The position numbers were made by a program, and so were the translations under genes. A DNA stretch of 16,623 bases. Origin: Pseudomonadota bacterium. Lineage in GTDB: Bacteria > Bdellovibrionota > FAC87 > UBA2466. Shown here piece by piece: positions 1-16,601 of the stretch; within the stretch, counting starts at the first letter, position 1, and every line of letters starts with the position of its first letter. Where the stretch lies: positions 1-16,623 of the forward strand of contig JAYUGC010000035.1 of NCBI GenBank assembly GCA_043767805.1, given 5' to 3'. Under the pieces are notes generated by a model that saw nothing but the letters and a program-made list of their open reading frames with translations, was not told where the DNA came from and did no database searches.

Positions 1-1
1 T

Positions 2-724: not shown

Positions 725-736
725 ATGGGTAAAAGA

Positions 737-774
737 GTTAGGCGTGCCCTTATCTCCGTAAGGGCACGCCTAAC
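737..774. terminator. Perfect 16-bp stem-loop between the two GH26 genes
   Basis: GTTAGGCGTGCCCTTA-tctccg-TAAGGGCACGCCTAAC. A T-tract follows only on the minus strand (plus-strand AAAAGA at 731-736). Confidence 0.65.
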
Positions 775-800
775 GGCAAATCGATTGGGGGATAAAACCG

Positions 801-1976: not shown

Positions 1977-3417
1977 GGTAGGCGGTCTCGTCGTCCTTGA
2001 TGAGTCCCGTCCTGACCGAGACGATAAACACTAGCCCGACGTACGTGATTGCGCTCACGATGAGTAACGGAAACGGATGGAGATGGAGCGGGTACCAAGC
2101 GAAGCAGCTCACCAACACGCAGAAGACGCTGACCGCGCCGATGCCGAAGATCGCTTTCCAGGGGAGATAGTCTCTCAGGCGCAAGCCCATGAGCTCACCC
2201 GCGAAATGAGAATAGAGGGCTAGCGTCATCGCGTCGGAGACCACTTTACCAACGAGAGCGCCCATAGGGCCGTACTGGTACGCTCCTCCAATGACGAGCA
2301 CGACCGTGTACGCCACGGCGATAATCTGAAGCTTCAGCACGAGGCCCGTGCGCGCGAAGACCCGGAAAAGAATCTCGGGCGAAAAGCCCGTGAGTAAGAG
2401 CCCAATCAAAAACACGCGGAAGTAGGCGGCGCTCTCCCGATAGGTTTCCGAGAAGATGAAAACGATGATTGGCACCGCGAAATAGAAAAGATACACCGCG
2501 ATGGGGACCTGAAAGAGCGAGACCTTGCGAATCGTCGAGTGCCAGAGCGCTTTCACTTTGCCTTGGTTATCCGTACGCCTAGCTTCCACCATGTCGAAGG
2601 ACATGAGATCGGTCATGGTATTGGAAACACTTCCGATGAGCGGCACTTCGAAGCACCCCACCGCGTAGAGGGTAAACTCGCGCACGGGAAACATTGCTGA
2701 GATGACGAACTTGTCCATTTTCAGGACGGAACCGATGAGATTCTTCGCGCCTTGCGGCAGGCTAAAGGCCACCTGCTCGCCGAAGAAGCGCTTCATCTCC
2801 GCCCAACCCACCTCGGCCGCCCGCACGCGCCGGAGATTGAAAACCAGTAGGCAAAGCAGCTTCGCAAGAGACAGGAGCGCGAGCCCCAAGATCACCGCGT
2901 GGAGCGAGCCGAACCAGTAAAAGCCGCCGACGATGACGCCCGCCTTAATCGCTTCGTAAGCGACGCTAAGCGCGATGGCGCTTTTGATATCGTCGAGAAC
3001 CGCGAGGTAGTGCTCGAAGTGCTGCGCGGGGATGGCGAACAAAACAAAGAGCGCGAAGACCGGGAAAAATTCGGCAAGGCCGGGATTATTGAATAACCGG
3101 GCGATGTCGCTTCCGAAGACGAGACACCCTCCAGCGAGCAAAACTGCCATTCCCAAATCAAAAAGCAGGATGTTCAGCGAGAAGACCCCTTCTTTCCCGG
3201 GATGACTCTTGATGAAATAGAACAACCCGTTGTCCATGCCCATGTGGCCGATGAGCAGCGCGAAGGAATAGAGGAGGATGAGCTGTTTGTAGGAGCCGTA
3301 AGCCTCGATGGTAAGCCAGCGGCTTAGGAAAACCGGGACGAGAAAGCCGGCCGCGACTACCGCTACATGGCCAATGGAGAGAAGGACCGTTTTTTCGAAA
3401 TGACGCTTGTCTGACAT
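1936..3417 (-). CDS. wzx: Wzx-type oligosaccharide flippase (MOP superfamily)
   Basis: About 493 aa with many hydrophobic segments. Typical N-terminus (VFLSRWLTIEAYGSYKQ) and DKFVISAMF..F.LY.VG motif. Start re-called to ATG 3417 (MSDKRH) because the ORF-track extension is hydrophilic and covers the promoter region. Confidence 0.85.
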   Translation of the reverse strand: MSDKRHFEKTVLLSIGHVAVVAAGFLVPVFLSRWLTIEAYGSYKQLILLYSFALLIGHMGMDNGLFYFIKSHPGKEGVFSLNILLFDLGMAVLLAGGCLVFGSDIARLFNNPGLAEFFPVFALFVLFAIPAQHFEHYLAVLDDIKSAIALSVAYEAIKAGVIVGGFYWFGSLHAVILGLALLSLAKLLCLLVFNLRRVRAAEVGWAEMKRFFGEQVAFSLPQGAKNLIGSVLKMDKFVISAMFPVREFTLYAVGCFEVPLIGSVSNTMTDLMSFDMVEARRTDNQGKVKALWHSTIRKVSLFQVPIAVYLFYFAVPIIVFIFSETYRESAAYFRVFLIGLLLTGFSPEILFRVFARTGLVLKLQIIAVAYTVVLVIGGAYQYGPMGALVGKVVSDAMTLALYSHFAGELMGLRLRDYLPWKAIFGIGAVSVFCVLVSCFAWYPLHLHPFPLLIVSAITYVGLVFIVSVRTGLIKDDETAYLKAKIAGLRRSLP

Positions 3418-3612
3418 AACCGGCCCCGAGGCGTAGGCAACGCTAATGCTTTCCGCCCGCCGCATCAACAAACAAACACCCGGCTGGGAGGGCCGGTGCC
3501 GTAAGTATCCGTCCGAATCGAAGGTAGAAAAGTTTACCGGGGCCACTTCGCCCCGTTTTCGTTTTTCCTCTGAAACTAGGCGTGAGTTAGCGTCCGAAAA
3601 CCGCGAATTCAG

Positions 3613-3628
3613 TGGCACCGAACCTGCA
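3613..3628 (+). promoter_or_regulatory. Sigma54 (-24/-12) promoter of the polysaccharide operon
   Basis: TGGCAC-CGAAC-CTGCA matches TGGCAC-N5-TTGCW with exact GG/GC spacing. It lies about 70 nt before ATG 3700. Confidence 0.7.
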
Positions 3629-3699
3629 CAAGCTTAAGTCCAGTCAGTGCTTGCGGCGGTTCAAACGACGAGGACCAAACCGGAAGCTGGGGGGACGGT

Positions 3700-4368
3700 A
3701 TGAACCAATATTTCTTGCGCAACGCGCAGGCCATTCGCTCAAACTATTCCCTGTCCTTCGAGTTCGAGTCCAAACCTACTTTCTCGCTACGGCAGCTGGC
3801 CATCGACTCCATGCAAGGTTTGATGGCGCTGACGCTCCTAGCCCTCTCGAGCCCCGCTCTCTGGCTTTGCTTTCTCGCCATCAAGCTGACCTCGCGGGGA
3901 CCCGCGCTCTACAGCCAGGAACGAGTCGGTAAGGACGGCAGAATTTTTAAAATCTATAAGCTCCGGTCCATGCGCCTCGACGCCGAGGCGCAGACCGGCC
4001 CGGTGTTGTCCTGGCGCAAGGACCCTAGAGTCACGCCGCTGGGCAACTTCCTGAGAAAGAGCCACCTCGACGAGCTCCCGCAGCTTTGGAACGTCATTCA
4101 AGGCGACATGCGCCTCATCGGCCCGCGCCCCGAGCGACCTTACTTCGTGAACCGCTTCCGGGAAGAGGTCAGAAATTACCGCGCGCGCGAGCAGGTAAAG
4201 CCCGGCATCACGGGACTCGCGCAAGTCTGCTGCGACTACGATGCGAGCCCCGAGGAAAAGCTCGAGTTCGACTTGCTCTACATCCGGCACCGGCACTCGG
4301 TACCCATCTACTTTTTGATTATTTACTACACTGCGAAAAAGGTTCTGTTCGCGTCGTCGGTTTCGTGA
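3700..4368 (+). CDS. Priming phosphoglycosyl transferase (bacterial sugar transferase domain, WcaJ/WbaP C-terminal type)
   Basis: YSQERVGKDGRIFKIYKLRSM, DPRVTPLGNFLRKSHLDELPQLWNV, GPRPERP, VKPGITGLAQV and EKLEFDLLYI motifs. One N-terminal hydrophobic helix. GGGGGA SD. Confidence 0.93.
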   Translation: MNQYFLRNAQAIRSNYSLSFEFESKPTFSLRQLAIDSMQGLMALTLLALSSPALWLCFLAIKLTSRGPALYSQERVGKDGRIFKIYKLRSMRLDAEAQTGPVLSWRKDPRVTPLGNFLRKSHLDELPQLWNVIQGDMRLIGPRPERPYFVNRFREEVRNYRAREQVKPGITGLAQVCCDYDASPEEKLEFDLLYIRHRHSVPIYFLIIYYTAKKVLFASSVS

Positions 4369-4383
4369 GGGGACCTTACTAAA

Positions 4384-5247
4384 GTGGGCAAAGTAGCTCT
4401 CAGCATAGACGTGGAAGATTGGTTCTGCGTTCGCAACATGGGTGGCCACATCTCTCCCCATGATTGGAACGGGTTTGAGTTCCGCGTGCGCGTGGGGCTC
4501 GATTTCATTTTGAAGGAGCTCGATCAGCGCGGCATCAAGGCGACTTTCTTCATGCTGGCCTGGGTCGCGGAAAAATGCCATTCTATCGTCGCGGAATTGA
4601 ACCGGGCCGGCCATGAGATCGCAAGCCATGGTTACAACCACCGGCCTCTCGACGAGATGAGCCCTCTCGATTTCCGGGAAGACGTAAAAGCCTCGCTCTG
4701 CATTTTATCCGCGCAGAGCTCGACTCCCATCCTGGGTTACCGCGCTCCCAGCTTTTCCATCACGGAGAAGACCACCTGGGCCCTCGATGTCCTGAGAGAG
4801 CTCGGCTTCGCCTACGACAGCAGCATTTATCCGATTCATCACCCGAACTACGGCATTCCGGACTTTCCGAAGGAGCCGACTCAAGTCTCTGGAATTCTCG
4901 AGCTCCCCATGAGCACCGTGAATGTTTTCGGAGTGACCTTGCCCATCTCGGGCGGTGGCTATTTCCGCCTGTATCCTTACGCGCTCTCCAAGAGACTCAT
5001 CCAAAGAGCGCAACGCCAGGGCGATGTGATCTTGTACTTCCACCCGTGGGAGTTCGACGAAGGACAACCGAGACTGAAGCTACCGGCCTTGCGGCGCTTC
5101 CGCCACTACGTCGGCCTTGGCAAGAACCGCGCGAAATTCCGGCGTCTGCTCGATGATTTTTCGTTCTGCCCCATGAAGGACCTGATGGGAGGAGCAGCGG
5201 ACGCTAAACGTGAAACGTACCAGCAGAGGGACCTATGGAAATCTTGA
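4384..5247 (+). CDS. Polysaccharide deacetylase (CE4; XrtA/PEP-CTERM-associated, DUF3473-containing type)
   Basis: SIDVEDWF, HEIASHGYNH, GYRAPSFSI, YDSS, GGGYFRLYP and YFHPWEFD..QPR motifs. GTG start. Confidence 0.92.
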   Translation: MGKVALSIDVEDWFCVRNMGGHISPHDWNGFEFRVRVGLDFILKELDQRGIKATFFMLAWVAEKCHSIVAELNRAGHEIASHGYNHRPLDEMSPLDFREDVKASLCILSAQSSTPILGYRAPSFSITEKTTWALDVLRELGFAYDSSIYPIHHPNYGIPDFPKEPTQVSGILELPMSTVNVFGVTLPISGGGYFRLYPYALSKRLIQRAQRQGDVILYFHPWEFDEGQPRLKLPALRRFRHYVGLGKNRAKFRRLLDDFSFCPMKDLMGGAADAKRETYQQRDLWKS

Positions 5248-6047
5248 AAAAACATTTACTCGCCGTCTCGACGGTAATCCTATTTGTCGTGAGCGCTTCC
5301 GTTTACGATTTCCTGGCGCCGGAGCAGTACGAAGTCACCAGCCGGGTCACCGTCCACCGCTCGCAGATAGAAGCCCCTAACCTCTCCACCGAAGAATCGA
5401 AGAACCGGTGGATTTGGGTGAGAGACGGAAACGCCATCAAGGACTCGCTCCTTTCTCAAGATCTCTTGAGCTCGATTCTGGCCAAGAGCGAATTACTTTC
5501 CCGTCGGTATGAGGAGTTTAAAGCCGAGAACGACGCCATCATCCGGGAATCGCTCAAACGCGGGCTGGTGGATGCGGACATCAAGATTCAGTTTCTTTCG
5601 GAGTTCCGCAAAGCCATCGACGTCGACTACTTGGGCGGCGATGCCTTCACCTACGTTATCACCGTGCGGGACAAGTCTCCCGTGCTGGCAAAAGAAGTGA
5701 ATAGCGTGCTCGTGGAGAAGCTCAGGTCTCTGGTCGTCGAGGAGACTAAGGTCTCTTACGAGCAATCCCTCGCCGCCTTAGAGCTCGAGCTTAGAAACAA
5801 TACAGCACCCAAAATTCGGGCTCACCTCGCGGAAACCTATCGGGGCCTCCTCACCTCGAAGGTACTCTTTAATGCGAGTAGCGATCGAAGAGTGGAAGTC
5901 GTTCAGGCTCCCTCTATTCCCTTTTCGCCCATCTGGCCCAAGATCGACCGCCTTTTGATTTTAGCTCTCGTCGCGGGTCTCGCTCTCGGTCTCCTTTTGG
6001 AATACGTGCTCGCCTGGCCGAAGCACCAAGAACTGCAGACGGCGTAA
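5235..6047 (+). CDS. Wzz-like polysaccharide co-polymerase / chain-length determinant (no tyrosine-kinase domain)
   Basis: N-terminal TM helix, helical periplasmic region, and Pro-rich VVQAPSIPFSPIWPK before a Gly-rich C-terminal TM (LALVAGLALGLL). Operon context. Confidence 0.75.
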   Translation: MEILKKHLLAVSTVILFVVSASVYDFLAPEQYEVTSRVTVHRSQIEAPNLSTEESKNRWIWVRDGNAIKDSLLSQDLLSSILAKSELLSRRYEEFKAENDAIIRESLKRGLVDADIKIQFLSEFRKAIDVDYLGGDAFTYVITVRDKSPVLAKEVNSVLVEKLRSLVVEETKVSYEQSLAALELELRNNTAPKIRAHLAETYRGLLTSKVLFNASSDRRVEVVQAPSIPFSPIWPKIDRLLILALVAGLALGLLLEYVLAWPKHQELQTA

Positions 6048-6052
6048 TAGAA

Positions 6053-7333
6053 ATGGAGCAAACGGCACTCATCCAGAGACCGGGGATCGCGGAGCTCACC
6101 AGAGCTTTCGGATCTTTGAACATGACCCCGGTCATGTGCCTTTTCGCCTGTCTGACTCTAAGTGCGGCCCACCTCGAAGTCTCGATGCTGACCCACATGG
6201 GTCTCGAGCTCATCCTGGTAGGTCTCCTTTGCTCCTTCTATCTGCCCACTCTCTTTCAAGCGAACGCCACCGCCGATCGGTACGGCGTTGCCCGCATCCT
6301 GACCTGTTGCCTTCTGATGCTCTCGGCTCCACTCCTCTCCTCGTTAGCCAATGGAGCGCGGCTCGAAATCTTGATGAACCCCGAGTTCCGAAGCTGGGCG
6401 AAAGCGCTTCTCGTCTTGCCGTTGATGCCTTGGCTCTGCCGAACCGCCCGGCGAAGAGAGTCGCTGCTGGACGCCCTCGTCTTCGGGGCGGCCGCCTTCG
6501 CCCTCATCGTCTTTTACCGCTTTTACGTTTTGGGCGAGATGCGCGAAGTCGACGAACGGCCGAAACTTCATGTTAAGAACGGCGATCCGAACTTCATCTG
6601 CGTCATCTTCGCGGTGGCGTTACCTTTCGTGCTCTACAAAATCCAGAGCGCCTACCAAGCGGGCAAGCGGTTCGCGCTCGTTTGGTATGCCATCTGTTTT
6701 GCGCTTTTTGCGGCCTGCGTAATCATCACCGAATCGAGAATGGGGTTAATCTCGCTGCTCGCCGGCGTGGTCGTTCTGATTCTGACCATCCCGGTTCAAA
6801 ATCGTAAGCTCAAGATCGCTTTGGCCGCGGCTTTCTTTATACTCGTCGGCTCCACGGTACTCGGCGGACGTGTGGCCGATCGTTTCAAGTCCATGGACGA
6901 CGAGTCCAATCGCGAGCGTATCAAGTCACTCGTGACGGGCGCGCAGATGTTCGTGCGCCGGCCGGCGTTCGGCTTTGGCTGGGGCACGAGCCCGAAGCAC
7001 TTCTACGAGATCACGGGGCACGGCCGGTTGATGTCGGAAGCCCGCCCTCTGTCAGTGCATAACACTTTCCTTCAGCTCATGAGCGAGTTGGGGATGATGG
7101 GCCTCTTCGCGTACTTGAGCTTGTACCTGACCGTCTTGGTCAGCATCTTGAACGCCCTTCGCGTTGACCGCCGTCTGGGTTGCTTCTGTCTCGGGGCCTT
7201 TGTCATCCTGAGCATGAATCTCACTACCCTTCCCCTTCAGGGAAAAGATTTCATCCTGCTCTACTTCGGAGTGCTCCTGACTCTCTCTCTCGGAGCGACC
7301 AATGCGGCCCGCGAAAAGGAGGAGGCCGCATGA
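6053..7333 (+). CDS. O-antigen ligase family / Wzy-like polymerase
   Basis: Multi-TM protein with GDPN, TESRMG, PAFGFGWG and VHNTFLQLMSELGMMG motifs. Confidence 0.88.
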   Translation: MEQTALIQRPGIAELTRAFGSLNMTPVMCLFACLTLSAAHLEVSMLTHMGLELILVGLLCSFYLPTLFQANATADRYGVARILTCCLLMLSAPLLSSLANGARLEILMNPEFRSWAKALLVLPLMPWLCRTARRRESLLDALVFGAAAFALIVFYRFYVLGEMREVDERPKLHVKNGDPNFICVIFAVALPFVLYKIQSAYQAGKRFALVWYAICFALFAACVIITESRMGLISLLAGVVVLILTIPVQNRKLKIALAAAFFILVGSTVLGGRVADRFKSMDDESNRERIKSLVTGAQMFVRRPAFGFGWGTSPKHFYEITGHGRLMSEARPLSVHNTFLQLMSELGMMGLFAYLSLYLTVLVSILNALRVDRRLGCFCLGAFVILSMNLTTLPLQGKDFILLYFGVLLTLSLGATNAAREKEEAA

Positions 7334-8502
7334 CGTCTTTCTTCTGGATCTGTTTCTTCCTCATTTTGACGAACTATCTGCTCTTTCCGCTTTTCGTCAT
7401 CGCGCTCGCTCGCTTCGTGCGAAGAGACATTCGCAAAGGGCGCATCCGGCCGGACGTAACCCTCATCATCTCGGCTTACAACGAGGCCGCGATCATCATG
7501 GCCAAGCTTCAAAATTGCCTCGAGCTCGACTACCCGAGAGATCACCTCCAAATCATCGTCGTCTCGGACGGCTCGACGGACCGGACCCCGGATTTGGTCG
7601 AGGCCTTCATGAGAGACAACAGCGGTGCCCGGGTGATGGGACTTCATCGCAACGAGCGCCGCGGAAAAGCTTCCGCCATGAATCATGGCGTTGCCGCAGC
7701 TTGCGGCGAGATCCTCGTTTTCTCCGATGCCAATACGAGCTACCACAAGGACGCCCTCCTCCACCTCGTCGAGAACTTCAGTGACGCCACCGTGGGCGGC
7801 GTATCAGGTCGTAAAGCAATTCTGAAGGAAAAAGAGCGGGCGAGCTCCTTGGGCGACAGGCTCTTCTGGACTTTCGAAGCGGCTCTCAAACGGAGCGAGA
7901 GCCTCGTGGGCTCCATTCCGACGGCGGACGGCGAAATCTTCGCCATCCGCGCGAGTCTCTACCACCCCTTGCCGCAGGGAACGATTAACGATGATACCGC
8001 GATCACTTTCGACATCGTCGAGGCGGGACTGCGCGTCGTTTACGACCCTCTCGCCGTCTCTGAAGAGTCGGCTTCCTTCACGCTCAGAGAAGACATGGCA
8101 GTGAAGGCCCGCATGGTGTACGGCGGTTATCAAAGCCTCGCCCGCTACCACCGGCGTCTCCTTCCTCCGCGCACCTTCTTCGCCTTTCAGTTCTTTTGCC
8201 ACAAGACGCTGCGCCATTGGATGCCCTTTCTCCTCATCGGGCTTTTCGCGTCCAATCTCTTCGTTCACGGCTACTTCTACGCCGGGGTCTTCTGGGCTCA
8301 GGTGACCTTTTATCTCGCCGCCCTCGCCGGCGCCGCGGCGCTTGGCGCTGGCCGGCCGCTCAAGCCGCTCTACCTGCCCCTCTACTATTGCTCGATGAAT
8401 CTGTCTGCGGTGTCGGGGCTCGTGCACTTTTTGAAGGGCCGGTCCGTCAACGAAATTTGGACGAAAGCGGAAAGGTCGGAAGCATGGAAGAGACATTTCT
8501 AG
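7330..8502 (+). CDS. Glycosyltransferase family 2, membrane-anchored
   Basis: IISAYNE, VVSDGSTDRT, RRGKASAMN, FSDAN (DxD), INDD and C-terminal TMs. Start re-called to ATG 7330 (ATGA overlap with the upstream stop, GGAGG SD). Confidence 0.92.
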   Translation: MTSFFWICFFLILTNYLLFPLFVIALARFVRRDIRKGRIRPDVTLIISAYNEAAIIMAKLQNCLELDYPRDHLQIIVVSDGSTDRTPDLVEAFMRDNSGARVMGLHRNERRGKASAMNHGVAAACGEILVFSDANTSYHKDALLHLVENFSDATVGGVSGRKAILKEKERASSLGDRLFWTFEAALKRSESLVGSIPTADGEIFAIRASLYHPLPQGTINDDTAITFDIVEAGLRVVYDPLAVSEESASFTLREDMAVKARMVYGGYQSLARYHRRLLPPRTFFAFQFFCHKTLRHWMPFLLIGLFASNLFVHGYFYAGVFWAQVTFYLAALAGAAALGAGRPLKPLYLPLYYCSMNLSAVSGLVHFLKGRSVNEIWTKAERSEAWKRHF

Positions 8503-9494
8503 TTACCGGAGGCGCTGGGTTCATCGGGTCCAACTTGGTGGAGCTCTTAATCGAGCAAGGGCACCGGGTGCGGGTTTTGGACAACTTCTCGACGGGGCAT
8601 CTGGCCAACCTCGCTGAGTTCGAGGGTGAATTGGAAATCGTGGAAGGCGACGTTACGCAGGCCGAGGATTGCCACCGCGCCATGAAGGGTGTTACGCGCG
8701 TCGTCCACCTCGCGGCCGAAGTCTCGGTGGCGCGCTCCATCGGCTCGCCCGTGGCGACCAATGGAACGAATGTCTCGGGTACCTGCGAGATTTTGGAAGC
8801 GGCCAAAGAAGAAGGCGTGCGGGGCTTCGTGTTTGCTTCCACTTGCGCGGTCTACGGGAACGCCGAAAGCCTTCCCATCGATGAGACCCGGGCGGTACAC
8901 CCGCTCTCGCCGTACGCCGCGAGCAAACTCGCGGCGGAACACTACGTGCGGCTATACCGGCAACTCTACGGTATGCCGTCCGTGGCCTTTCGGCTCTTTA
9001 ACGTCTATGGGCCGAAACAAGATCCTACCTCCGCTTACTCGGGCGTGATCTCCGCCTTCGCCGATCGCCTAGCTCAAGGCACGCCGACGACCATCTATGG
9101 AGACGGAGAGCAAACCCGGGACTTCATCTTCGTGAAAGATGTGGTGAGCGCGTTCGTTTGGGCGGCCTTGAACCCCGAGTTCTTGCATGAATCCGTCTAT
9201 AACCTCGCGACCGGCTCGGCGACCTCGGTCACGCGCTTACACGAGAAACTCGTTCGTCTCGCGGGTGGCGGACCTCCGCCCCTCTTCGCGCCGCAAAGAA
9301 TCGGGGAAGTCAGGCATTCTCTAGGAAAGGCCGAGCTGTACTTGAGCGCGCGGGGCTTGGAAGCTTCCGATCTAGCGACCTTATCCGAAGGATTAGAGAG
9401 GACGGCGCACTGGTTTTTCCCTCGTCCGGCAATGGCGCGCCGAAGTTTTCCCGCTCACGGCACTGCCGCGGCCGGCTTCCTGGTGAGCCAGTGA
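8484..9494 (+). CDS. NAD-dependent NDP-sugar epimerase/dehydratase (UDP-Glc/GlcNAc 4-epimerase-like)
   Basis: LVTGGAGFIGS Rossmann motif, SPYAASK (YxxxK), FNVYGPKQ and GDGEQTRDF. Start re-called to ATG 8484 (MEETFLV). Confidence 0.93.
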   Translation: MEETFLVTGGAGFIGSNLVELLIEQGHRVRVLDNFSTGHLANLAEFEGELEIVEGDVTQAEDCHRAMKGVTRVVHLAAEVSVARSIGSPVATNGTNVSGTCEILEAAKEEGVRGFVFASTCAVYGNAESLPIDETRAVHPLSPYAASKLAAEHYVRLYRQLYGMPSVAFRLFNVYGPKQDPTSAYSGVISAFADRLAQGTPTTIYGDGEQTRDFIFVKDVVSAFVWAALNPEFLHESVYNLATGSATSVTRLHEKLVRLAGGGPPPLFAPQRIGEVRHSLGKAELYLSARGLEASDLATLSEGLERTAHWFFPRPAMARRSFPAHGTAAAGFLVSQ

Positions 9495-10261
9495 AACTCT
9501 TTAGCGTCCTGCTAGCCCTGCTTCTCTCCGTTTCGGCTAGAGCCACATTAAAAGGCAATCTGTCTCTCGAGGAGAGCTATGAGCCTCTCGGCGCCTTGGT
9601 CCGCACTTCCTTGCGAGCACGCATGGAGCAAGCCATCACCCCGTTCGTGTCCCCTTATCTCGCGGCGGGAAATGAGTCGGCCTCTCCTTACCAGTATCCT
9701 TTGCAATTAAATTCAGAGGCGTACCTTTTCGCGGCGCCCGGCGTGAAGCTGAGCCTTGGGAACTTCTCACTCCTCGCCGAGACCCGTTTTCGTAAATTCC
9801 ATATGGAGAATTACGAAGGAGCGCCGCCTCGGGCCTTGGTCGACGTCCAAGGGCTTCTCATTTACGACAACTACTGGGATCACAGGCTTTCAGAAACGAG
9901 CGGCCTTTCTTTATTTGGCGCGGTTTATAGCGAAACCAATTTCACTAGCGCGGATAATGCTAATCTCCTTCATACGACCCTCGTACGGGCCGGCCCGGAG
10001 ATTGTCTTCGTAAAAGGCGGGCACCTCGCGGCTTTCGTGGAGCCAAACTTCGTCGTCGATAGACTGCACCATTATTACAATAACCGCGCGGAGCTCAGAT
10101 TCAGTGGGCGCGTGCGGTACAACGCGGAACCGTTCGTACTAAATCTCACCGTTTCCTATCTCTTCAACCACTATTTCAAAATGAAGTACCTGGAAGAGTA
10201 TCCGCCCCCCGATCGCAACCAAGGCGTTACGGCTAAGCTCACTCTCGCCGTACATTACTGA
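9491..10261 (+). CDS. Hypothetical protein, predicted outer-membrane beta-barrel
   Basis: Signal peptide MKLFSVLLALLLSVSARA, alternating amphipathic strands, and C-terminal aromatic residue (AKLTLAVHY). GTGA coupling to the epimerase stop. Confidence 0.65.
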   Translation: MKLFSVLLALLLSVSARATLKGNLSLEESYEPLGALVRTSLRARMEQAITPFVSPYLAAGNESASPYQYPLQLNSEAYLFAAPGVKLSLGNFSLLAETRFRKFHMENYEGAPPRALVDVQGLLIYDNYWDHRLSETSGLSLFGAVYSETNFTSADNANLLHTTLVRAGPEIVFVKGGHLAAFVEPNFVVDRLHHYYNNRAELRFSGRVRYNAEPFVLNLTVSYLFNHYFKMKYLEEYPPPDRNQGVTAKLTLAVHY

Positions 10262-10991
10262 GACTTCGGCGGGGATTCTTGAAATGGTCGATGATCATCC
10301 CGATCGGCCGCGCGTCGTCGGAGGGATCCGCCGGTAGATTGAGCCGCTCTTGCCTCCAAGGAGCGTAGGGAGGCGCCCCCAAGCGCAGTTTTCCGAGGTA
10401 AGGAGCATAGCCTCCTACCGGAGCAACTAGTCCGAAGTCGACGACCAAGATCTTTCCCGTCGAGTCGATGAGGAGGTTCGCGGGGGTAATATCGGAATGC
10501 ACCCACCCGTTCTCTCCGGTCTTTTGCAAGATCCCTTGAGCTTTCCCTAGCTGGGCCGCGATGTGGTCGGCGTCAAAGGCGCCCGTCTCCCCGCCGCGCA
10601 CGACGGCTTTGACGGACTTAGGACTCTCCCCGTCGTAGAGCATTGTGGTGAGGATGAGCATTCCTTCCGGCCCGGGGTGCGCTCTCATGAAAAGACCGTC
10701 TGGATCGACGGGCTCAATCAATTTCGAGACCGCAACTTCGTGCTGAAGGGATTGCCGACCGCGGGGCTCCTCCCCCAAAGGCACTTTGATGGCCATGGGA
10801 ACCGGAGTGTCTTTCGTCAGATATACCGCCGCGAAAGACCCTTCTCCCGTCAGCACCAGATTGTTTCCAAAATGCTCGATTAGGGTGGCGTACCCCTTAA
10901 GGCAAAGGGCAGCGGGGCGCTCCGGCTCGGCAAAGAGCGGCGTGGCCCACAAAACCATTCCTAAAATGGCCGTGACGGACAATCGAAGCAT
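10239..10991 (-). CDS. Hanks-type Ser/Thr protein kinase-like protein with N-terminal signal peptide
   Basis: GEGSFAAVY (Gly loop), MAIKV (Lys), QHEV (helix C Glu), HSDITPANLL (catalytic loop), VVDFGL and GAPPYAP. N-terminus MLRLSVTAILGMVLWATPLFA|E. Confidence 0.82.
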   Translation of the reverse strand: MLRLSVTAILGMVLWATPLFAEPERPAALCLKGYATLIEHFGNNLVLTGEGSFAAVYLTKDTPVPMAIKVPLGEEPRGRQSLQHEVAVSKLIEPVDPDGLFMRAHPGPEGMLILTTMLYDGESPKSVKAVVRGGETGAFDADHIAAQLGKAQGILQKTGENGWVHSDITPANLLIDSTGKILVVDFGLVAPVGGYAPYLGKLRLGAPPYAPWRQERLNLPADPSDDARPIGMIIDHFKNPRRSLSNVRRE

Positions 10992-11087
10992 TGGACTCTC
11001 AATATCGCCGTGGACCGCTTGAATACGGCAGAGCTTTTATGTCGCTTGTGGCCACTGGCTGGCATTAGCCATAATGAGCCCTACCTC

Positions 11088-12395
11088 ATGCGTTTTTTGT
11101 TCTTACTAAGTTTCCTTTGCCTATCCGCGCGCGCGGAGCTGGCGAGCCCCGAGACATGGGCGGCGTTGAAGGCTTTCCACGGCTAATTCCGCATGGGCCT
11201 CGAAGTGGAAGCGGTTGGCCCGCCCATGGAGCGCGTGCTTCCTTACTTGGAGTACGAAGCGCTCATGGAAAGTCTCCCCGCAAGCTACTTCAACTGGCGA
11301 CCGAACCACGCGGACGCGTATCTAGAGCGAGAGGGAAACTTCGAAACGCTTTCGCCGGAGTTGCAAACAAAGCTTCTCGAAATGAAGCGGCCCAACGAGA
11401 CGATTCAGTCCGCCTGGACGAGACTGCCTTACGAAACTCAGGTCGCGGCCATTAAGCCCTCTCGCATGCCGCTTAGCGTGCTCTCTTACAAGCTCGCCAA
11501 CCTCGCGGCCGCGCTGAAAGTTCGCGAAGACGCCCCGCCCGCTTTCAAAGAGATGATGAGCCGGTTCGCCCTTGAGCCAGACGCCGTTAGCGGTCCGGCT
11601 ATCTTCGAGTTCAAGCATAACGAGGACATCGCCATGACCGATCCGGTCAAGTACCTCGCCGATCTGGCCTCGCTCTCAGGGTTCCTCGGTATCCAAAGCA
11701 TGCTCGACGATCCGCTCACCAGAAAGCCAGGGATCTATTCGTATCACGTGCATATCAGCAAGAAAGACGGGCCTATCGTGGAAAGCGTGCTGCAGGCTCT
11801 CAATTTCAAGCGCATGTTGGATCTCGCCAAACTTAATTCCGCAGCGGCCTTTAGTGAAACGAGCACGGTGGCGTACCAAACGGATATCAGGCGCAAAGGG
11901 CTCATCCGCCGTATCGCCGAAGATCGGGTCGAACTCAGATACCACGACGGAAATCCGGTCGACGAGCTGCGCTCGACCCTTGAGCTCTTGAGTCTTCCGG
12001 AGAAAGAAGCGGCCTCCCGCCTGAGTGCCCAGGTGGCCGAGCAGTTCACGCCCGAGCTCATCGAAAAAATCACCGAGATACGGCCTGACGTGGTCGTTGA
12101 TTACCTCCTTCATATTTACCCTCACCTCACGACCGAACAGAAGATCTTCAACGGCACTTTGCTCGCTGCGGTTCAGTCGGGAATCAGGAACGGGGGTAAA
12201 GAGAGCTCGGTGAAACGCCGTTTCGTGAAATCCTTGTACGCGGGCATGGCCTCTCCCGGCGTTTCCAAAGAGGCCAAAAGCATAATGAAAACCCTGGCCG
12301 CCCAAACCGATCCCTCGGGCGTCCCCTGGGCTCAGAACTTCGTGAGCGGCGTCTTCCAAAGTTGTGCCCTCGCCTTCAAGTCCCTCACCCGCTAA
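11088..12395 (+). pseudogene. Secreted amidoligase / COOH-NH2 ligase-fold-like protein interrupted by in-frame TAA at 11184-11186 (intact ORF 11193-12395)
   Basis: From ATG 11088 the frame reads MRFLFLLSFLCLSARA|ELASPETWAALKAFHG*FRMGLEVE, in frame with the 400-aa ORF. Motifs GLEVE, EPD, FEF, YHVHIS and VELRY occur in the order expected for glutamine-synthetase/GCS-fold ligases. Confidence 0.6.
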
Positions 12396-12407: not shown

Positions 12408-13190
12408 CATTGCTGTCCGGTTGGACGCGGTAGGTAAAGGTTGAAGAAGGCCTGAAACCAAGGCAACACAGGGTTTTCGACCAAGAAAATACTGTGCCGG
12501 AGGTTTCAGGCCGTAAGCCAAAATAACGTGTTCGAGCAAATGATCAAGTTGGTTTCTCGCCACCAGTTCGAGGGAGCGGTAGCTCACTTTGAAGGGGATC
12601 GGGGGGTTCGAACGCTCGACTGCTGGACGTGGTTCGGCGCGCTTCTATTCGGCCAACTCAGTGGCCACGACTCCATACGAGCCATCGAGCGTGTTTTCTG
12701 CCACGGCAATCGGCGCATGCAACGCATGGGCTTTTCCACTGTATGTCGCAGTACTCTTGCCGACGCCAATCAGAGCCGGCCTCTGGGGATCTTGGAGCGC
12801 ACTTACGCTGGTGTTCTCTCCCATGCCAAGCACATTTGTCCCGAACGCCACGGCTTTCGCTTTGAGGGCGAGGTCCGGGCGCTAGACTCCTCAGTCATCG
12901 ACCTGTGCCTATCTTTGAGTCCTTGGGCGAGCTTTCGCAAGGGAAGGTCTGGCGTGAAGCTGCACACGGCGATAGACCTAGCGGGAGATTTGCCGGACTT
13001 TGTCGTCATTACACCCGCCTTGCGCCACGACGTTCCTATTGCCCGGCAGTACTTGCACCCCAAGGCAGGTTCCACGGTGATTTTCGACCGCGGCTACTGG
13101 AGCGCAGACTTTCTCAACCAGCTCAACCGCGACAAGGTCTTCTTTGTCACCCGAGCTAGAAAAAACAATCGCTTCAAAGTCCTCGAAAGG
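12408..13190 (+). mobile_element. IS4-family insertion sequence, left part only
   Basis: Begins CATTGCTGTCCGGTT, resembling termini of DUF4372-type IS4 elements, followed by the transposase. No matching right end or target duplication found. Confidence 0.7.
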
Positions 13191-13289
13191 GGCTCACGTC
13201 TAACTGATATCTACTTTCATATAAGTCTTCAAATACTTAACCACTATTGCATAGTACTACTAGGTAGTATATACTACTTAGTAGTATGA
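12513..13289 (+). pseudogene. IS4-family transposase (DUF4372 + DDE), 3'-truncated
   Basis: VFEQMIKLVSRHQFE, LLFGQLSGHDSIRAIE, RSTLADAN, LDSSVIDL, GVKLH, FDRGY and FFVTR motifs. Similarity stops near 13190, before the catalytic Glu region. The remaining tail is read-through of the TA promoter. Confidence 0.88.
13247..13286 (+). promoter_or_regulatory. Sigma70 promoter and double palindromic operator of the TA operon
   Basis: -35 TTGCAT (13247-13252), 17-nt spacer, -10 TATACT (13270-13275). Two TACTAC-N3-GTAGTA palindromes at 13255-13269 and 13272-13286. Confidence 0.85.
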
Positions 13290-13624
13290 GACGCACCTTC
13301 GTGGAAACCTCACTGTTTGCGAGGCGAGTAAATCAGGAGGGCGCCGAAGTTCTGAAGGAGATTCAAGCGGAGATCCTAAAGAATTCTGAAGGCGGCCGAA
13401 TTATTCAGGGTACCGGAGGGCTACGGAAACTCCGAGTAGGCGACGAGGGCCGCGGAAAGGGCAAGCGCGGTGGCTTCAGGGTGATCTACTTGGACCTGCC
13501 ACACATCGAGCGCACGCATCTTCTGGCCCTCTACGACAAGGACGAAAAAGACGATATCTCGAAAGACGAGAAGAAAGCTCTGAAGGCTCTGGTGGAGCAG
13601 ATTAAAAAGGAAGCACGATTATGA
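13286..13624 (+). CDS. higB: Type II toxin, RelE/HigB family
   Basis: FVETSLF, G.IIQGTGGLRKLR, GKGKRGGFRVIY and LYDKDEKDDIS motifs. Toxin-first order with ATGA overlap to the HTH gene. Confidence 0.9.
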   Translation: MRRTFVETSLFARRVNQEGAEVLKEIQAEILKNSEGGRIIQGTGGLRKLRVGDEGRGKGKRGGFRVIYLDLPHIERTHLLALYDKDEKDDISKDEKKALKALVEQIKKEARL

Positions 13625-13953
13625 AAAAGACAAAACTTGGCCAGGAACTGATCGCCAGTCTCACCGAGGCCGTTGACTACGAGCGCGGTAAGAAAAAACT
13701 GCGTACTTCCACGCTTGAAATTCCCGAGCCCGCTAAACACTGGCGCAAGGACCAGATCGCGCGTCTTCGCAAAGAGCGATTCGGCGTAAGCCAGCCCGTA
13801 TTCGCTTCCCTTCTCAGCGTGACCGCATCGACGGTTCGAGCATGGGAGCAAGGGCTAAAAACACCATCGGGTGCCGCTAGCCGGCTTCTAGAGCTTGCAG
13901 AAATCGAGCCTGAAGTCTTTCAACGTCTGGCCAAAGACCGCCGTTCCGCCTAA
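13621..13953 (+). CDS. higA: Type II antitoxin, HigA-like Xre/Cro HTH
   Basis: ELIASLTEAV N-terminus and HTH VSQPVFASLLSVTASTVRAWEQGLKTPSGAASRLL. Confidence 0.9.
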   Translation: MKKTKLGQELIASLTEAVDYERGKKKLRTSTLEIPEPAKHWRKDQIARLRKERFGVSQPVFASLLSVTASTVRAWEQGLKTPSGAASRLLELAEIEPEVFQRLAKDRRSA

Positions 13954-13960
13954 CGAGGCA

Positions 13961-14143
13961 CTAAAAGTTGATAAACTTCGCCATCAGAACGACGGAAAGC
14001 ACGAGAGAAATGAAAAAGACTCCAAGGGTCGAAGCGGCGAATCTCATCAAGCCGATCTGAATGTCCTTTGCCTCTGCCAGCAAATTAGGAACCCCTAAAC
14101 CCTCTTTGAACGCATCGTCATCATCCTTTAAAAGCTGGGTCAA
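13961..14143 (-). CDS. Possible small membrane protein or 3' gene remnant
   Basis: 60 aa with one C-terminal hydrophobic helix. TTG start with no clear SD. Stops 7 nt from the higA stop. Confidence 0.3.
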   Translation of the reverse strand: MTQLLKDDDDAFKEGLGVPNLLAEAKDIQIGLMRFAASTLGVFFISLVLSVVLMAKFINF

Positions 14144-14233
14144 GGCAGTGTCTTGTGTAGCTTGCGGGAAAGCGGAGTTTCCAATTATTAGCGAGTTTGC
14201 CCGCTGCCTTTGAAGTCGAGCAATTTGATTCGT

Positions 14234-14268
14234 AAAAAACTCGTAAGGCTCACTTGAGCTACGAGTTT
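14234..14268 (-). terminator. Intrinsic-terminator-like hairpin
   Basis: AAACTCGTA-ag-GCTCA-ct-TGAGC-TACGAGTTT. The A6 run at 14234-14239 gives a U-tract on the minus strand. Confidence 0.55.
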
Positions 14269-14333
14269 GAAGATGCGTTCATGCGATGCATTGATCGAAT
14301 TGACGATCATTTCGCTCGCGCTTTGTTGGTTAG

Positions 14334-15478
14334 ATGCCATTTCTTATGTGCCTTATCGGGGGCGTGGTTACCTCACTTATGGTTCGGTACCACTGGGATT
14401 ATTTCTTCCTCCTTAAATTCGGCATCGTATCCCTCTACTCCGTCGCCCTTTGGAATAGCACCAAGTACCACGTTGCCATGCATTTCTTCGGCTTTGTCGG
14501 TTGGGCATTCTACCGAGCGGTGGCGAAGATCGGAATGCAGAACCGAGCGACAGAAGTCTTTGAAAATGCCGGGCTCACGAGTCGCAAGGCGCAACTACCC
14601 AAACTACTCGCCCATGAGTTAGCCGAGGATGGAATCCACCGAATGCGGATTGCGCGCTCTGGTCTTGCCAGGCAAGACTTCGAGAAAGCCAAGGGTAGCA
14701 TGGCATCCTCGATGGGGGTCTACGTCAATATTATCGAGGAGAACCGCGTTCGCGGAACCGTCGATATCACTTACAGCAGGACTCCCATTCCTAATTCCGT
14801 AGAGCTAGATTTCGCTGATCTCGGGCGCCTTCGTGAAGGGGAGTTCTATATCGGCGCAGGATATGCGGGATTGAAAACTTTCAGCCTCTCTCTGAGAGCC
14901 CCCACCTCCTCATCGCTGGTGAAACCGGAAGTGGAAAGTCGACGTTTCTCCACCAGTTCATTACCGGCCTTTACCGGAATGACCCCCGGATAGAAATGAC
15001 GCTCATTGACCTGAAGGGCGGTCTTGAGTTCACCGCGTTCAGCTCCCTTCCCGGCGTCACTGTGGTCACAGATCGAGAAGAGGCCTCAAAACGTCTAACA
15101 GTCTTTCCTGAAATCATTGGACGACGAATGGGAACCCTTAGGCAGAAGCACGCCAAGAGCATTGAGGAACTCTACGGCGAAAAGAGGAAGTTCGTGAATC
15201 GCGATGTCGTTATCATTGATGAGGTGGCGGAAATGTTTCTCCCTTCGGAGGATGACGCCGCCAAAGCGATTCTAAGTCAAATTGCGCGACAAGGCCGGGC
15301 GCTGGGGCTTCACCTGGTTGTGGCCACCCAGAGGCCGGATACTCGCGCCCTCGATCCTCAGATCAAAGCAAACCTTACCGGTGTGCTGTGTTTCAAAATG
15401 CTGAATGACGCTTCAAGCATCACGGTGCTCGGAAACGGGAAGGCAACCGAACTACCATCCGCACGGCCTCCGCCTTGA
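14334..15478 (+). pseudogene. FtsK/SpoIIIE-domain ATPase with N-terminal TM helices, frameshifted and 3'-truncated
   Basis: Removing one CT from (CT)4 at 14886-14893 joins ORF 14334 to SESPHLLIAGETGSGKST (Walker A), LIDLKGGLEF, VVIIDEVAE (Walker B) and GRALGLHLVVATQRP. Similarity ends after LGNGKATELPS near 15460. Confidence 0.88.
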
Positions 15479-15556
15479 ACTCCGCAGAATGGTTTCTATA
15501 AGGGCGTTTCTCGGACACGGTTACCTCCAACATCGAAGTATACCGCCTAACTTGGA

Positions 15557-15581
15557 GTGTCCATTTTACTGAGGAAGGTCA
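15557..15581 (+). mobile_element. Lone IS3-family-like terminal inverted repeat (right end)
   Basis: The reverse complement TGACCTTCCTCAGTAAAATGGACAC fits the IS3-family 5'-TG...GGACAC terminus pattern. Preceded by GCCTAA. Confidence 0.55.
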
Positions 15582-15582
15582 G

Positions 15583-15782
15583 CGACAGCAGTCCCACAAA
15601 ATTCCTACCGAACTTCTGGGATATTTGAGGAAAGAGCGCGAAAGGGTGACTAGCGTTTTTGTGGCCGCTTCGTCCGAGAGCGAAATGCTCTCGTATGAAT
15701 GGTACTCACGGACGCTGACCCGGTATTGCAAGGACTTGCGATTCCGTTGGTCGAAACCCACGGGCTACGGCATTCAACAGCG
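15583..15782 (+). pseudogene. Tyrosine recombinase (integrase) internal fragment
   Basis: RQQSHKIPTELLGYLRKERERVTSVFVAASSESEMLSYEWYSRTLTRYCKDL, a 1-nt frameshift near 15739, then IPLVETHGLRHSTA (HxLRH box II). No downstream LGH/Tyr region. Confidence 0.72.
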
Positions 15783-15822
15783 CCGCTTGCCGGAAAAATG
15801 TTGAGTCTTTGTCCATGCTCAT
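15775..15822 (-). pseudogene. abiEii: AbiEii nucleotidyltransferase toxin, 5' stub
   Basis: ATGA overlap with the abiEi stop. MSMDKDSTFFRQAALL resembles AbiEii N-termini, then the frame runs into antisense integrase DNA and stops at 15706 with no KGGT/DxD motif. Confidence 0.55.
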
Positions 15823-16601
15823 CCCTCTCCAGTTTCACCCAACGGAGGGAGCGTGATCTGAAATTCTTTATCCAGCTTACATCCTGGTACGACGACCCGT
15901 TTGCCGGTGCCGAGGTTCAGTTTCGAGGTGTTCAATTTTGAGTACCAGGGGTGGTTGCATCGCTTAGCAAGCGCCAGAAATAACCGTTTCACTTTTACCG
16001 AGCGGCAAGCCTTTAGAAGTGAAAAGGCCAAATCAGGTCTTAGGGCAGTCAGCCCCTCCATCAATTGAAAAGCCTCCTCTATCCCCTGTTCTTTCGGCGC
16101 GAGGTACAACGCCTCCATTATCGCCCTTTCCGGAGTCGAGGTCTGGACTTCGAAATTTTGGAATGAATGGGAGGTGAGTCCGAGAGAGTGAGTTCCCCCA
16201 AACAGCTTGGGGCCGAAGTACTGGATCCGACGTCCCCAGGGATGCCGTAAATACCAAGGCGGCAGCCTCACGTTCTTTTGGCCAAAGAGGTATACGACCG
16301 CACCCTTTCCGGCCGGAACGAAGTGGCCAAAGCCCTTTAGTTCCAACGCCGTTTTCGCCGCCACGTGAACGGGGAGTTTCAATTGCGTTTGTATGGCGAA
16401 TAGCGCCCCCGTCCAATCGACGTTGTCATTCAACCGAGCGTAGGCCCCGGGCCCCACCCGACGCAACCATCCCGACTTTTCATATTCGAAGGCAAGCTGT
16501 TGATATACCCCATGTTTTTCCAGCCACGGGAGCGCCGCAACGGTCCCCGCTGGCCAGACATGAAGTAAATGGTTTATTTTGGAGTGTAATTCACCAGCCA
16601 T
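15819..16601 (-). CDS. abiEi: Type IV TA antitoxin, AbiEi family transcriptional regulator
   Basis: SKINHLL..WP.G, Y.KSGWL.RVG.GAY, HVAAKTALELKG..H, LP.W, STPERAIMEAL, GL..LRP, C.SVKVKRLFL and LGTGKR motifs. Confidence 0.88.
   Translation of the reverse strand: MAGELHSKINHLLHVWPAGTVAALPWLEKHGVYQQLAFEYEKSGWLRRVGPGAYARLNDNVDWTGALFAIQTQLKLPVHVAAKTALELKGFGHFVPAGKGAVVYLFGQKNVRLPPWYLRHPWGRRIQYFGPKLFGGTHSLGLTSHSFQNFEVQTSTPERAIMEALYLAPKEQGIEEAFQLMEGLTALRPDLAFSLLKACRSVKVKRLFLALAKRCNHPWYSKLNTSKLNLGTGKRVVVPGCKLDKEFQITLPPLGETGEG

Follow-up and report, generated by a model that had tools for sequence, protein, structure and literature searches.

A lone-cysteine helix at the termini of exported enzymes in a Bdellovibrionota bacterium looks like an undescribed tag

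The contig JAYUGC010000035.1 of a Pseudomonadota bacterium (GTDB lineage Bdellovibrionota; NCBI GenBank assembly GCA_043767805.1) was analysed over its full length of 16,623 nucleotides, and this stretch, one whole contig (C35) of an assembly of 4.52 Mb in 204 contigs with 57.9% G+C, is referred to here as the window. It contains two divergently transcribed genes, one for a small exported protein kinase and one for a ligase-like protein with a glutamine synthetase (GS)/YbdK-like domain, and each product has a lone Cys in the pattern C-x3-[FY]-x2-L close to one of its termini. Comparison of sequences across enzyme families and genomes leads us to propose that this terminal Cys helix looks like an undescribed tag, for which tethering, anchoring and delivery are the candidate jobs. 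We hold with good confidence that the Cys module is real and conserved. A description of such a tag was not found in the open-access literature searched.

The two genes and their parts lie in the window as follows.

10239 to 10991, minus strand: gene of the small exported protein kinase (P0001, 250 aa), from Pfam Pkinase and ABC1 matches and motifs
10929 to 10991, minus strand: kinase signal peptide, residues 1-21, with predicted cleavage between PLFA and EPERP, from a home-made heuristic and the sequence
10881 to 10904, minus strand: N-terminal motif CLKGYATL, which begins with C30, the kinase's sole Cys
10419 to 10850, minus strand: kinase catalytic core, residues 48-191, from the Pfam match
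10992 to 11087, no strand: divergent intergenic region of 96 bp between the kinase and ligase-like genes
11088 to 11183, plus strand: signal-peptide-like frame of 32 codons, MRFLFLLSFLCLSARA before and ELASPETWAALKAFHG after the predicted cleavage point, in frame with the ligase open reading frame (ORF), from a profile match and alignment to the N-termini of P0004 and P0005
11184 to 11186, plus strand: in-frame TAA between the signal-peptide frame and the enzyme domain
11193 to 12395, plus strand: ligase-like ORF (P0002, 400 aa)
11193 to 11957, plus strand: GS/YbdK-like catalytic domain, about residues 1-255, with GLEVE, EFKH, SYHVHIS and RVELRYH
11958 to 12326, plus strand: armadillo/HEAT-like helical region, of varying length in the family, from model helices 255-372
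12327 to 12392, plus strand: C-terminal helix and tail with CALAFKSL at 12363-12386, from the sequence and the model; the stop codon follows at 12393-12395

A first-pass annotation of the window had placed the sole Cys of the kinase in CLKGYATL and that of the ligase-like protein in CALAFKSL, and we confirm the coordinates of both motifs, the sole-Cys status of C30 and C391, and the divergent transcription of the genes, which lie 96 bp apart on opposite strands. C30 is 9 residues past the predicted cleavage site, after the residues EPERPAAL; C391 has 9 residues behind it and is invariant in the 5 closest sequences. That both enzymes are secreted, as the annotation also had it, is borne out for the kinase by its predicted signal peptide and fails for the ligase-like protein as it is encoded here, where the TAA at 11184-11186 cuts the signal peptide off. 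The annotation had further warned that two examples cannot exclude chance. This caution was justified: the pair is what the motif was derived from and so proves nothing by itself, and it is independent family data that support the motif.

For the C-terminal form these data come from the ligase-like family. An exhaustive phmmer search of 1.84 billion representatives gave 97 remote relatives of P0002 with lengths of 146-1296 aa, and together with P0002 they make up the set of 98 proteins used here. The family architecture consists of a signal peptide, a GS/YbdK-like domain, a variable helical region and a Cys tail, and signal-peptide-like N-termini are present in 65/98 proteins. The tail Cys lies within the last 25 residues in 90/98, at 3-22 residues from the C-terminus (median 11), and Cys accounts for 3.7% of the last 25 residues vs. 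0.18% elsewhere. In 39 of these 90 the protein has no other Cys at all, and in 54 it has no other beyond residue 35. With P0002 excluded, the strict motif C-x3-[FY]-x2-L occurs in 15/89 tails, against about 0.68 expected over the 83 tails that are long enough (Poisson 1e-15); the relaxed motif C-x3-[FYW]-x2-[LIVMF] occurs in 21/89 and a broad motif in 34/89. The tails are amphipathic, with a hydrophobic moment of 1.31 vs. 0.90 for shuffled tails (p 4e-14). A Cys tail also ends each of the 13 family ORFs that were read at 12 loci of relatives and of this genome.

Conservation of the Cys in homologues, on which the first-pass annotation had made its idea depend, extends from these tails to the N-terminal form. 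P0003, the single close homologue of the kinase (50% identity), keeps the motif as CQPIFTAL. In the Fic family, C-x3-[FY]-x2-[LIV] stands soon after the signal peptide in 8/8 sequences having N-termini, at about 30-51% identity; this set includes P0102 (51% identical), a paralogue and five orthologues of another genus (30-37% identity over segments). A ninth Fic sequence, P0103, lacks the motif region and has no Cys. The N-terminal Cys is found 3-13 residues past the type-I cleavage site, and charged or polar residues precede it, as in EPERPAAL-C, DEDLFK-C and PSPAALD-C; the Fic orthologues have D, N, H or P directly ahead of it.

The module is not confined to these families. We compared this genome (G000) with G007, a held-out whole genome of another genus (2.16 Mb) that was processed with the same scripts, and unrelated exported enzymes with a lone Cys bear the strict motif at their N-termini across the two genomes (CFQNFSAL, CREKFSSL, CKSLFPKL, CQNVFSEL and CQESFQKL). 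Among the 22 lone-Cys proteins of G000 with the Cys 3-22 residues past the cleavage site, which we call the N-zone, about 10 show C-x3-[YFW]-x2-[LIV] after polar or acidic residues, and because such residues precede them these motifs lie outside the hydrophobic core of the signal peptide. The N-zone carriers are mostly mutually unrelated by BLAST, and according to Pfam they comprise three Fic proteins, a UDPGP-like nucleotidyltransferase, a flavin amine oxidase, a glycerol-3-phosphate-oxidase-like flavoprotein and several proteins without a family. The C-terminal carriers of this genome include a cytidylyltransferase-like protein and two GT28 glycosyltransferases. In G007 the carriers are again cytoplasm-type enzymes, namely a methyltransferase fused to an LPG-synthase-C-like domain, proteins with weak glycosyltransferase and methyltransferase matches, a PLD-like protein with the tail SPCENIFQQLF, and Fic proteins.

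The UDPGP-like protein encoded at C11:26123 has a signal peptide and the motif; a paralogue in this genome (58% identical) and the orthologue in G001 lack both the signal peptide and the Cys, their starts lying about 45 residues further on. Because these relatives begin downstream of both elements, the signal peptide and motif are, by this comparison, an add-on module. In the amine-oxidase family, of which nine members were read, an N-terminal Cys is present in 3, shifted by a residue in one of them, and the amine oxidase of G011 has instead a lone C-terminal Cys in the tail SSCHFLMKKL (...SSCHFLMKKLENSPHL). Of a NadD-like nucleotidyltransferase, the G048 copy bears the Cys behind its signal peptide and the copy of this genome bears it at the C-terminus; ordinary cytoplasmic NadD-like proteins, which have no tail, make up most relatives of the small cytidylyltransferase-like protein. 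A search with GT28 found one relative, whose ends were not recovered, and the homologues of C71:20766 are fragments. The first-pass annotation had proposed a Cys tag for effector cargo that is portable and independent of position, and the ligase tails, the kinase and Fic N-termini, the UDPGP-like add-on and the families with the Cys at either end all fit a tag with these two properties.

We then counted the motif over whole proteomes, with gene calls and signal-peptide calls from crude home-made heuristics. In G000, the mature part contains a single Cys in 147 of the predicted exported proteins; it lies 3-22 residues past the cleavage site in 22 and 3-22 residues from the C-terminus (the C-zone) in 17, each against 11.6 expected. 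The motif counts that follow leave out the two founders. The first-pass annotation had named enrichment at the termini of exported proteins as its check, and the outcome differs between the two ends. For the strict motif in the N-zone, enrichment was found both in G000 (5/322 Cys vs. 7/2208 interior Cys, p 0.012) and among signal-peptide proteins of G007 (4/112 vs. 6/1226, p 0.007); in the C-zone, exported proteins did not exceed cytoplasmic ones, and the strict motif was not significant in G000. The relaxed motif follows 19/322 N-zone Cys of exported G000 proteins vs. 32/2208 interior Cys (p 6e-6) and 12/509 cytoplasmic N-zone Cys (p 0.008), and 9/225 Cys in the C-zone (p 0.011 vs. interior Cys). 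When one-Cys proteins of the two genomes are counted without any signal-peptide calls, the strict motif is found at 11 terminal-zone Cys with 2.29 expected (Poisson 3e-5), and at 6 interior Cys with 3.7 expected. The proteome-scale enrichment is modest.

What could a single thiol near the end of an exported enzyme be good for? The explanation that we prefer, to which we give a probability of roughly 0.45, is a portable single-Cys helix module that tethers or escorts its carrier. The module comprises about 10-20 residues that would form an amphipathic helix, with the single Cys on the hydrophobic face, a hydrophobic residue at +4 and an aliphatic one at +7, and is placed either directly after the Sec signal peptide or at the extreme C-terminus. 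Its carriers are exported enzymes that would use cytoplasmic co-substrates, such as adenosine triphosphate (ATP) and other nucleoside triphosphates, nucleoside diphosphate (NDP) sugars, S-adenosylmethionine (SAM), aminoacyl-tRNA and flavin adenine dinucleotide; kinase, Fic, nucleotidyltransferase, glycosyltransferase, GS-like ligase, methyltransferase and oxidase candidates belong here, all otherwise nearly Cys-free. In the oxidising periplasm, pairing of the helix with that of a second copy, or with a helix of a shared carrier, would allow the lone thiol to form an intermolecular disulfide. This bond would tether or escort the enzyme until it arrives in a reducing cytoplasm, for example that of a prey cell, where the bond would be broken and the enzyme would meet its co-substrates. 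We favour an intermolecular disulfide because the Cys and the residues at +4 and +7 would be in register on one hydrophobic face, the carriers avoid additional Cys and the module is not bound to one place in the protein; the disulfide-tether mechanism itself is nevertheless put forward tentatively. As neither a partner nor a processing enzyme was found (no search aimed at homologues of myxosortase, a CPBP protease, was made), it is by inference that we assign a tag function.

A helix had been proposed by the first-pass annotation for both motifs. This part is supported for the ligase tail, where the AlphaFold2 model predicts a helix at residues 379-399 and the family shows the hydrophobic moment, and finds no support in the AlphaFold2 model of the kinase (2-sequence alignment), which is unusable at a mean predicted local distance difference test score (pLDDT) of 33.9, so that its helix 26-41 is no evidence.

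In AB toxins an enzymatic chain is held by a disulfide to a binding or translocation chain and is freed by reduction in the target cytosol. The proposed arrangement is similar in that one thiol would serve a Cys-poor enzyme acting in the cytoplasm of another cell, and it would explain why exported enzymes need cytoplasmic co-substrates. Unlike in AB toxins, no B chain or carrier chain was identified here, the disulfide is proposed only, and the Cys of AB toxins is not known to sit on a portable terminal helix. In a more specific form, which we regard as somewhat unlikely, the Cys helix would be the address label of an unrecognised delivery route, in which Sec-exported enzymes of cytoplasmic type, Fic AMPylators among them, are disulfide-coupled to a common carrier or translocator and so reach the cytoplasm of another cell, to be freed there by reduction. 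Exported enzymes needing ATP, SAM or NDP-sugars are a standing puzzle, and to our knowledge the route by which enzymes of Bdellovibrio-type predators reach the prey cytoplasm has not been settled. If the tag is what we propose, it would provide a sequence rule that lists candidate effectors from genomes alone, its single thiol would be a handle for cross-linking or trapping the partner or machinery, and it would represent a new type of bacterial terminal tag that is independent of a membrane segment. If the delivery route exists, the tagged proteins would be a directly readable catalogue of prey-directed effectors. Were the helix a mere dimerisation staple, it would still be a clean case of selection for one Cys in otherwise Cys-free exported proteins.

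The main rival of the disulfide model is lipid anchoring. Here the Cys would be lipidated as a thioether or thioester, the chain perhaps trimmed beyond it, and the module would be a surface-sorting tag that anchors the enzyme to the outer membrane, a vesicle or the surface; it could then be described as a MYXO-CTERM-like signal that lacks the helix, or as a signal independent of a lipobox. An invariant Cys near the terminus of exported proteins is typical of lipoproteins and of four Cys-containing C-terminal sorting signals, for which lipid attachment and cleavage by CPBP proteases have been proposed (10.1101/2023.06.07.544157). These signals consist of a signature motif, a transmembrane helix and an Arg cluster, at the C-terminus only, and the preprint describing them does not contain the word "Bdellovibrio" (10.1101/2023.06.07.544157); a second source on such signals is mBio 2025, PMC11980579. 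The Cys helix resembles them as a short terminal element with an invariant Cys that occurs on many unrelated Sec-exported proteins of one lineage, and the residue ahead of the tail Cys is often small (S19, P12, G11 and A8 of 90). Unlike those signals, it has a transmembrane-like segment in 0/98 tails (15-residue windows of the last 30 residues, mean Kyte-Doolittle above 1.6), its Cys is followed by 3-22 mostly amphipathic residues, and it also occurs directly after the signal peptide. The ligase tails are 24% charged, Arg is common in them at +6, +9 and +10 with no transmembrane helix before it, and the NCBIfam sorting-domain models do not match P0002. Because the tag has no membrane segment and can be at either end, an intramembrane protease of known type could not act on it.

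Bacterial lipoproteins have as their signal the lipobox [LVI][ASTVI][GAS]C, on which Lgt, LspA and Lnt act. The N-terminal form shares with it a Cys close to the signal peptide of exported proteins. Unlike in lipoproteins, this Cys is past the type-I site and follows charged or polar residues instead of a lipobox, in the kinase (cleavage after PLFA, then EPERPAAL-C) as in Fic, and among the tails a lipobox-like triplet precedes the Cys in 1/98. In the CaaX box, which is known from eukaryotic proteins and some injected bacterial effectors, the Cys is fourth from the C-terminus. The likeness is a C-terminal Cys on effector-type enzymes; the differences are that the CaaX position is occupied in only 1/98 tails (P0084), far from the typical spacing seen here, and that the N-terminal form is incompatible with it. 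Taken together we consider a lipid anchor unlikely.

A second explanation, to which we likewise assign a low probability, is that the ligase tail is a genuine feature, the kinase and Fic proteins each have an N-terminal Cys specific to their family, and the two forms resemble each other as generic amphipathic helices with no tag in common. Differences in detail favour this: in the N-terminal type the residue at +5 tends to be small and the Cys tends to follow an acidic stretch containing Leu, and in the ligase tails Ser tends to precede the Cys and Arg or Ser to occupy +6. Hydrophobic residues at +4 and +7 could belong to any amphipathic helix with a buried Cys, so the N- and C-terminal forms could be functionally unrelated. 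A number of further observations weigh against a single tag of the kind that we prefer. The C-zone of exported G000 proteins is not enriched over that of cytoplasmic proteins (9/225 vs. 10/400, p 0.21); in G007 the relaxed motif is not enriched in the N-zone (4/112 vs. 26/1226, p 0.24) and the C-zone has 1/84 relaxed and 0/84 strict motifs. The relaxed motif was picked post hoc, after the data were seen, the strict-motif counts are small at 4-5 per cell, and false positives are visible in the calls (RsmD, Era, asparagine synthase, an acyltransferase and a DnaJ-like start). The tail Cys is missing in 8/98 ligase-family proteins, some of them fragments, 3/9 amine oxidases have two C-terminal Cys and 2/9 no terminal Cys, and the kinase is thinly sampled, with one close homologue. 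Nor are kinase and ligase-like genes neighbours elsewhere: the pairing is not conserved, and in all five relatives holding both families they are on different contigs. Around 23 tagged genes no recurrent neighbour gene was found, and only tagged genes themselves cluster, in islands on C11 (four genes) and C34 (three genes). The disulfide, the partner and the delivery are putative. The predatory habit of the lineage is presumed, with RpoB fragment matches of 74-75% to metagenome-assembled genomes labelled Myxococcales, delta proteobacterium and Bdellovibrionales.

Three findings speak for one common tag in spite of these points. The strict motif, defined from one N-terminal and one C-terminal founder, was recovered in other ligase tails and also at the N-termini of lone-Cys enzymes in two genomes. 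Two enzyme families have the Cys helix at either end. The carriers moreover share a rare trait, being exported with cytoplasmic co-substrates and having almost no other Cys.

A role within the carrier itself is a third possibility, which we judge improbable. The Cys helix would fold onto its own enzyme as a redox-sensitive lid or autoinhibitor, or would act as a swinging arm with a catalytic thiol. Flexible Cys-bearing C-terminal arms exist in other enzymes, and the tail helix of P0002 has a pLDDT of about 60 against above 90 for the body, which fits a mobile element. Against this, the same short pattern is found at one terminus or the other on at least 8 enzyme folds whose chemistries are unrelated, a distribution that a part in every active site would not easily explain. 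That two 8-residue strings starting with Cys merely happen to share an aromatic residue and a Leu, as a motif defined post hoc from two sequences would allow (the strict pattern follows 68/10724 Cys, or 0.6%, in this genome, and its 93 copies genome-wide compare with 102 expected), is already disfavoured and appears very improbable in view of the conserved ligase tails, Fic N-termini and kinase homologue and the terminal enrichment in one-Cys proteins of two genomes.

We return to the ligase-like gene, since its reading frame is interrupted. The family profile match spans 11088-12308 with one TAA inside; cleavage after MRFLFLLSFLCLSARA would give a mature start ELASPE..., and the ATG of the ligase ORF at 11193 is two codons 3' of the TAA. 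Homologues are uninterrupted at this site (P0005 ...AGRYRFGLEIE, where the window encodes ...FHG, the stop and FRMGLEVE), and the remaining 29 family matches, from a search of 41 genomes, are all free of internal stops. The TAA is present with no variant in contigs of 3 sequencing runs of one study, possibly the source of this DNA. The uninterrupted homologues and matches, and the identical letters in the contigs of the three runs, mark the ligase gene, as far as sequences can tell, as a lineage-specific nonsense allele. P0002 would then be either a young pseudogene or a non-exported product translated from the ATG at 11193, that is, a switch to a non-exported form. A suspected second case of a signal peptide, TAA and enzyme, on C164 of G000, was rejected, as the TAA there is the stop upstream of the normal start of a cytoplasmic paralogue.

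The AlphaFold2 model of P0002 (48 sequences) has a pLDDT of 91.7. Its top Foldseek match is YbdK (1r8g; E 8e-4, probability 0.99, TM score 0.22-0.25), followed by glutamine synthetases. From residue 1 to about 280-300, P0002 is alike at the fold level to the YbdK/GCS2 ligases and glutamine synthetase (1r8g, 1tt4, 4bax, 2qc8 and others); compared with the cytoplasmic YbdK and glutamine synthetase, the GS-like family adds the signal peptide, the helical repeat region and the Cys tail. Conserved family columns include a G-x-E-x-E strand, the invariant H185 and E247, and the nearly invariant E139, H187 and R249; these Glu, His and Arg residues are putative equivalents of the metal- and nucleotide-binding residues in the glutamine synthetase active site. 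The predicted fold suggests carboxylate-amine ligase activity. The ATP-dependent ligase of the first-pass annotation is thus supported at the level of fold and motifs only and not by family models, because neither Pfam nor NCBIfam has a family that matches P0002 at E up to 1, although GCS2, Gln-synt_C and Amidoligase_2 are presumably the Pfam models relevant to its fold. Likewise 18/19 scanned homologues had no Pfam match at E up to 0.01, and the remaining one matched HEAT/Arm only. When the family profile was compared with solved structures, designed armadillo repeat and helical proteins matched the C-terminal region, and a relative of the catalytic domain was not found. A word-index homology search with P0002 returned the self-match only, and in a pattern search of genome contigs based on a 5-row alignment 0/210 pattern matches encoded relatives. 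The GS-like proteins form a large unannotated enzyme family without a Pfam model. A position-specific scoring matrix made from the ligase tails did not discriminate, with P0002 itself at -1.8, and was dropped. At G023:C7:40689-44942 (L009) there are three tandem GS-like copies with near-identical signal peptides (MR.LLF.LAW...AQAEIRVAQEVEL) and differing Cys tails, and this locus is a locally expanding array.

The kinase assignment rests on a Pfam Pkinase score of 32.8 bits, above the gathering score of 31.7, with an additional ABC1 match; P0003 scores 35.2 bits. AIKV, HSDITPAN and VDFG, which represent the catalytic Lys of beta-3, the HxD...N loop and the DFG motif, are present in P0001 and all kept in P0003. 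The genomes of the relatives have only distant kinases. At a locus in G012 a 372-aa Pkinase protein with a signal peptide has its lone Cys in SCAGTLADL, and a second exported kinase adjoins it, with the Cys directly after the signal peptide.

Some observations were made on individual carriers and their surroundings. The amine oxidases of G008, G006 and G010 (L079, L080 and L090) have two conserved C-terminal Cys about 20 residues apart (RGHCAA...W..C...), which probably form an internal disulfide, unlike the lone-Cys tail of the G011 relative. Two adjacent exported Fic-domain proteins of 635 and 768 aa are encoded in this genome at C115:15974-20176, each with a lone N-terminal Cys motif, and mutual similarity between them was not detected by BLAST. 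A 163-aa protein of G007 (L342, C3:6306-6797) with a weak Fic match (E 0.013) has a lipobox-like LASC in its signal peptide and a second Cys 11 residues on, in CPKAYSQL; it may be a lipoprotein that also bears the motif. The C11 island (C11:23321-37875) encodes exported lone-Cys proteins, including the UDPGP-like protein with N-terminal CYADYIGV, two GT28 proteins with the tails CNFGRL and CPFSAL, a relative of the C-terminal part of the GT28 giant (tail CVKGFNDL), and an SLT transglycosylase with CLSGYRNV near its end. At C34:16990-20476 there are three adjacent exported proteins without a family, with the Cys tails KCNYGAVKGK, ACNFYWGKVTGK... and RCWAAMSGINN...; the first two are mutually related, and the third is related to C81:3641.

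In the window, the kinase and ligase-like genes sit between a polysaccharide cluster and mobile-element remnants.

1 to 10261: polysaccharide cluster, with two GH26-like genes, a Wzx-type flippase, a sugar transferase, a deacetylase, Wzz, a Wzy_C ligase-like protein, GT2, an epimerase and a Cys-free exported protein without a family
12528 to 16601: mobile-element remnants, with a truncated IS4-type DDE transposase (DUF4372 and DDE_Tnp_1), a RelE/HTH pair, an FtsK/SpoIIIE fragment over two frames and an AbiEi antitoxin gene at the contig end

The exported protein that closes the polysaccharide cluster (9491-10261, 256 aa) is Cys-free, matches neither Pfam nor NCBIfam and ends in ...LTLAVHY, an ending that in our impression resembles the terminus of an outer-membrane barrel. 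Its gene shares 23 bases with the 3' end of the kinase gene.

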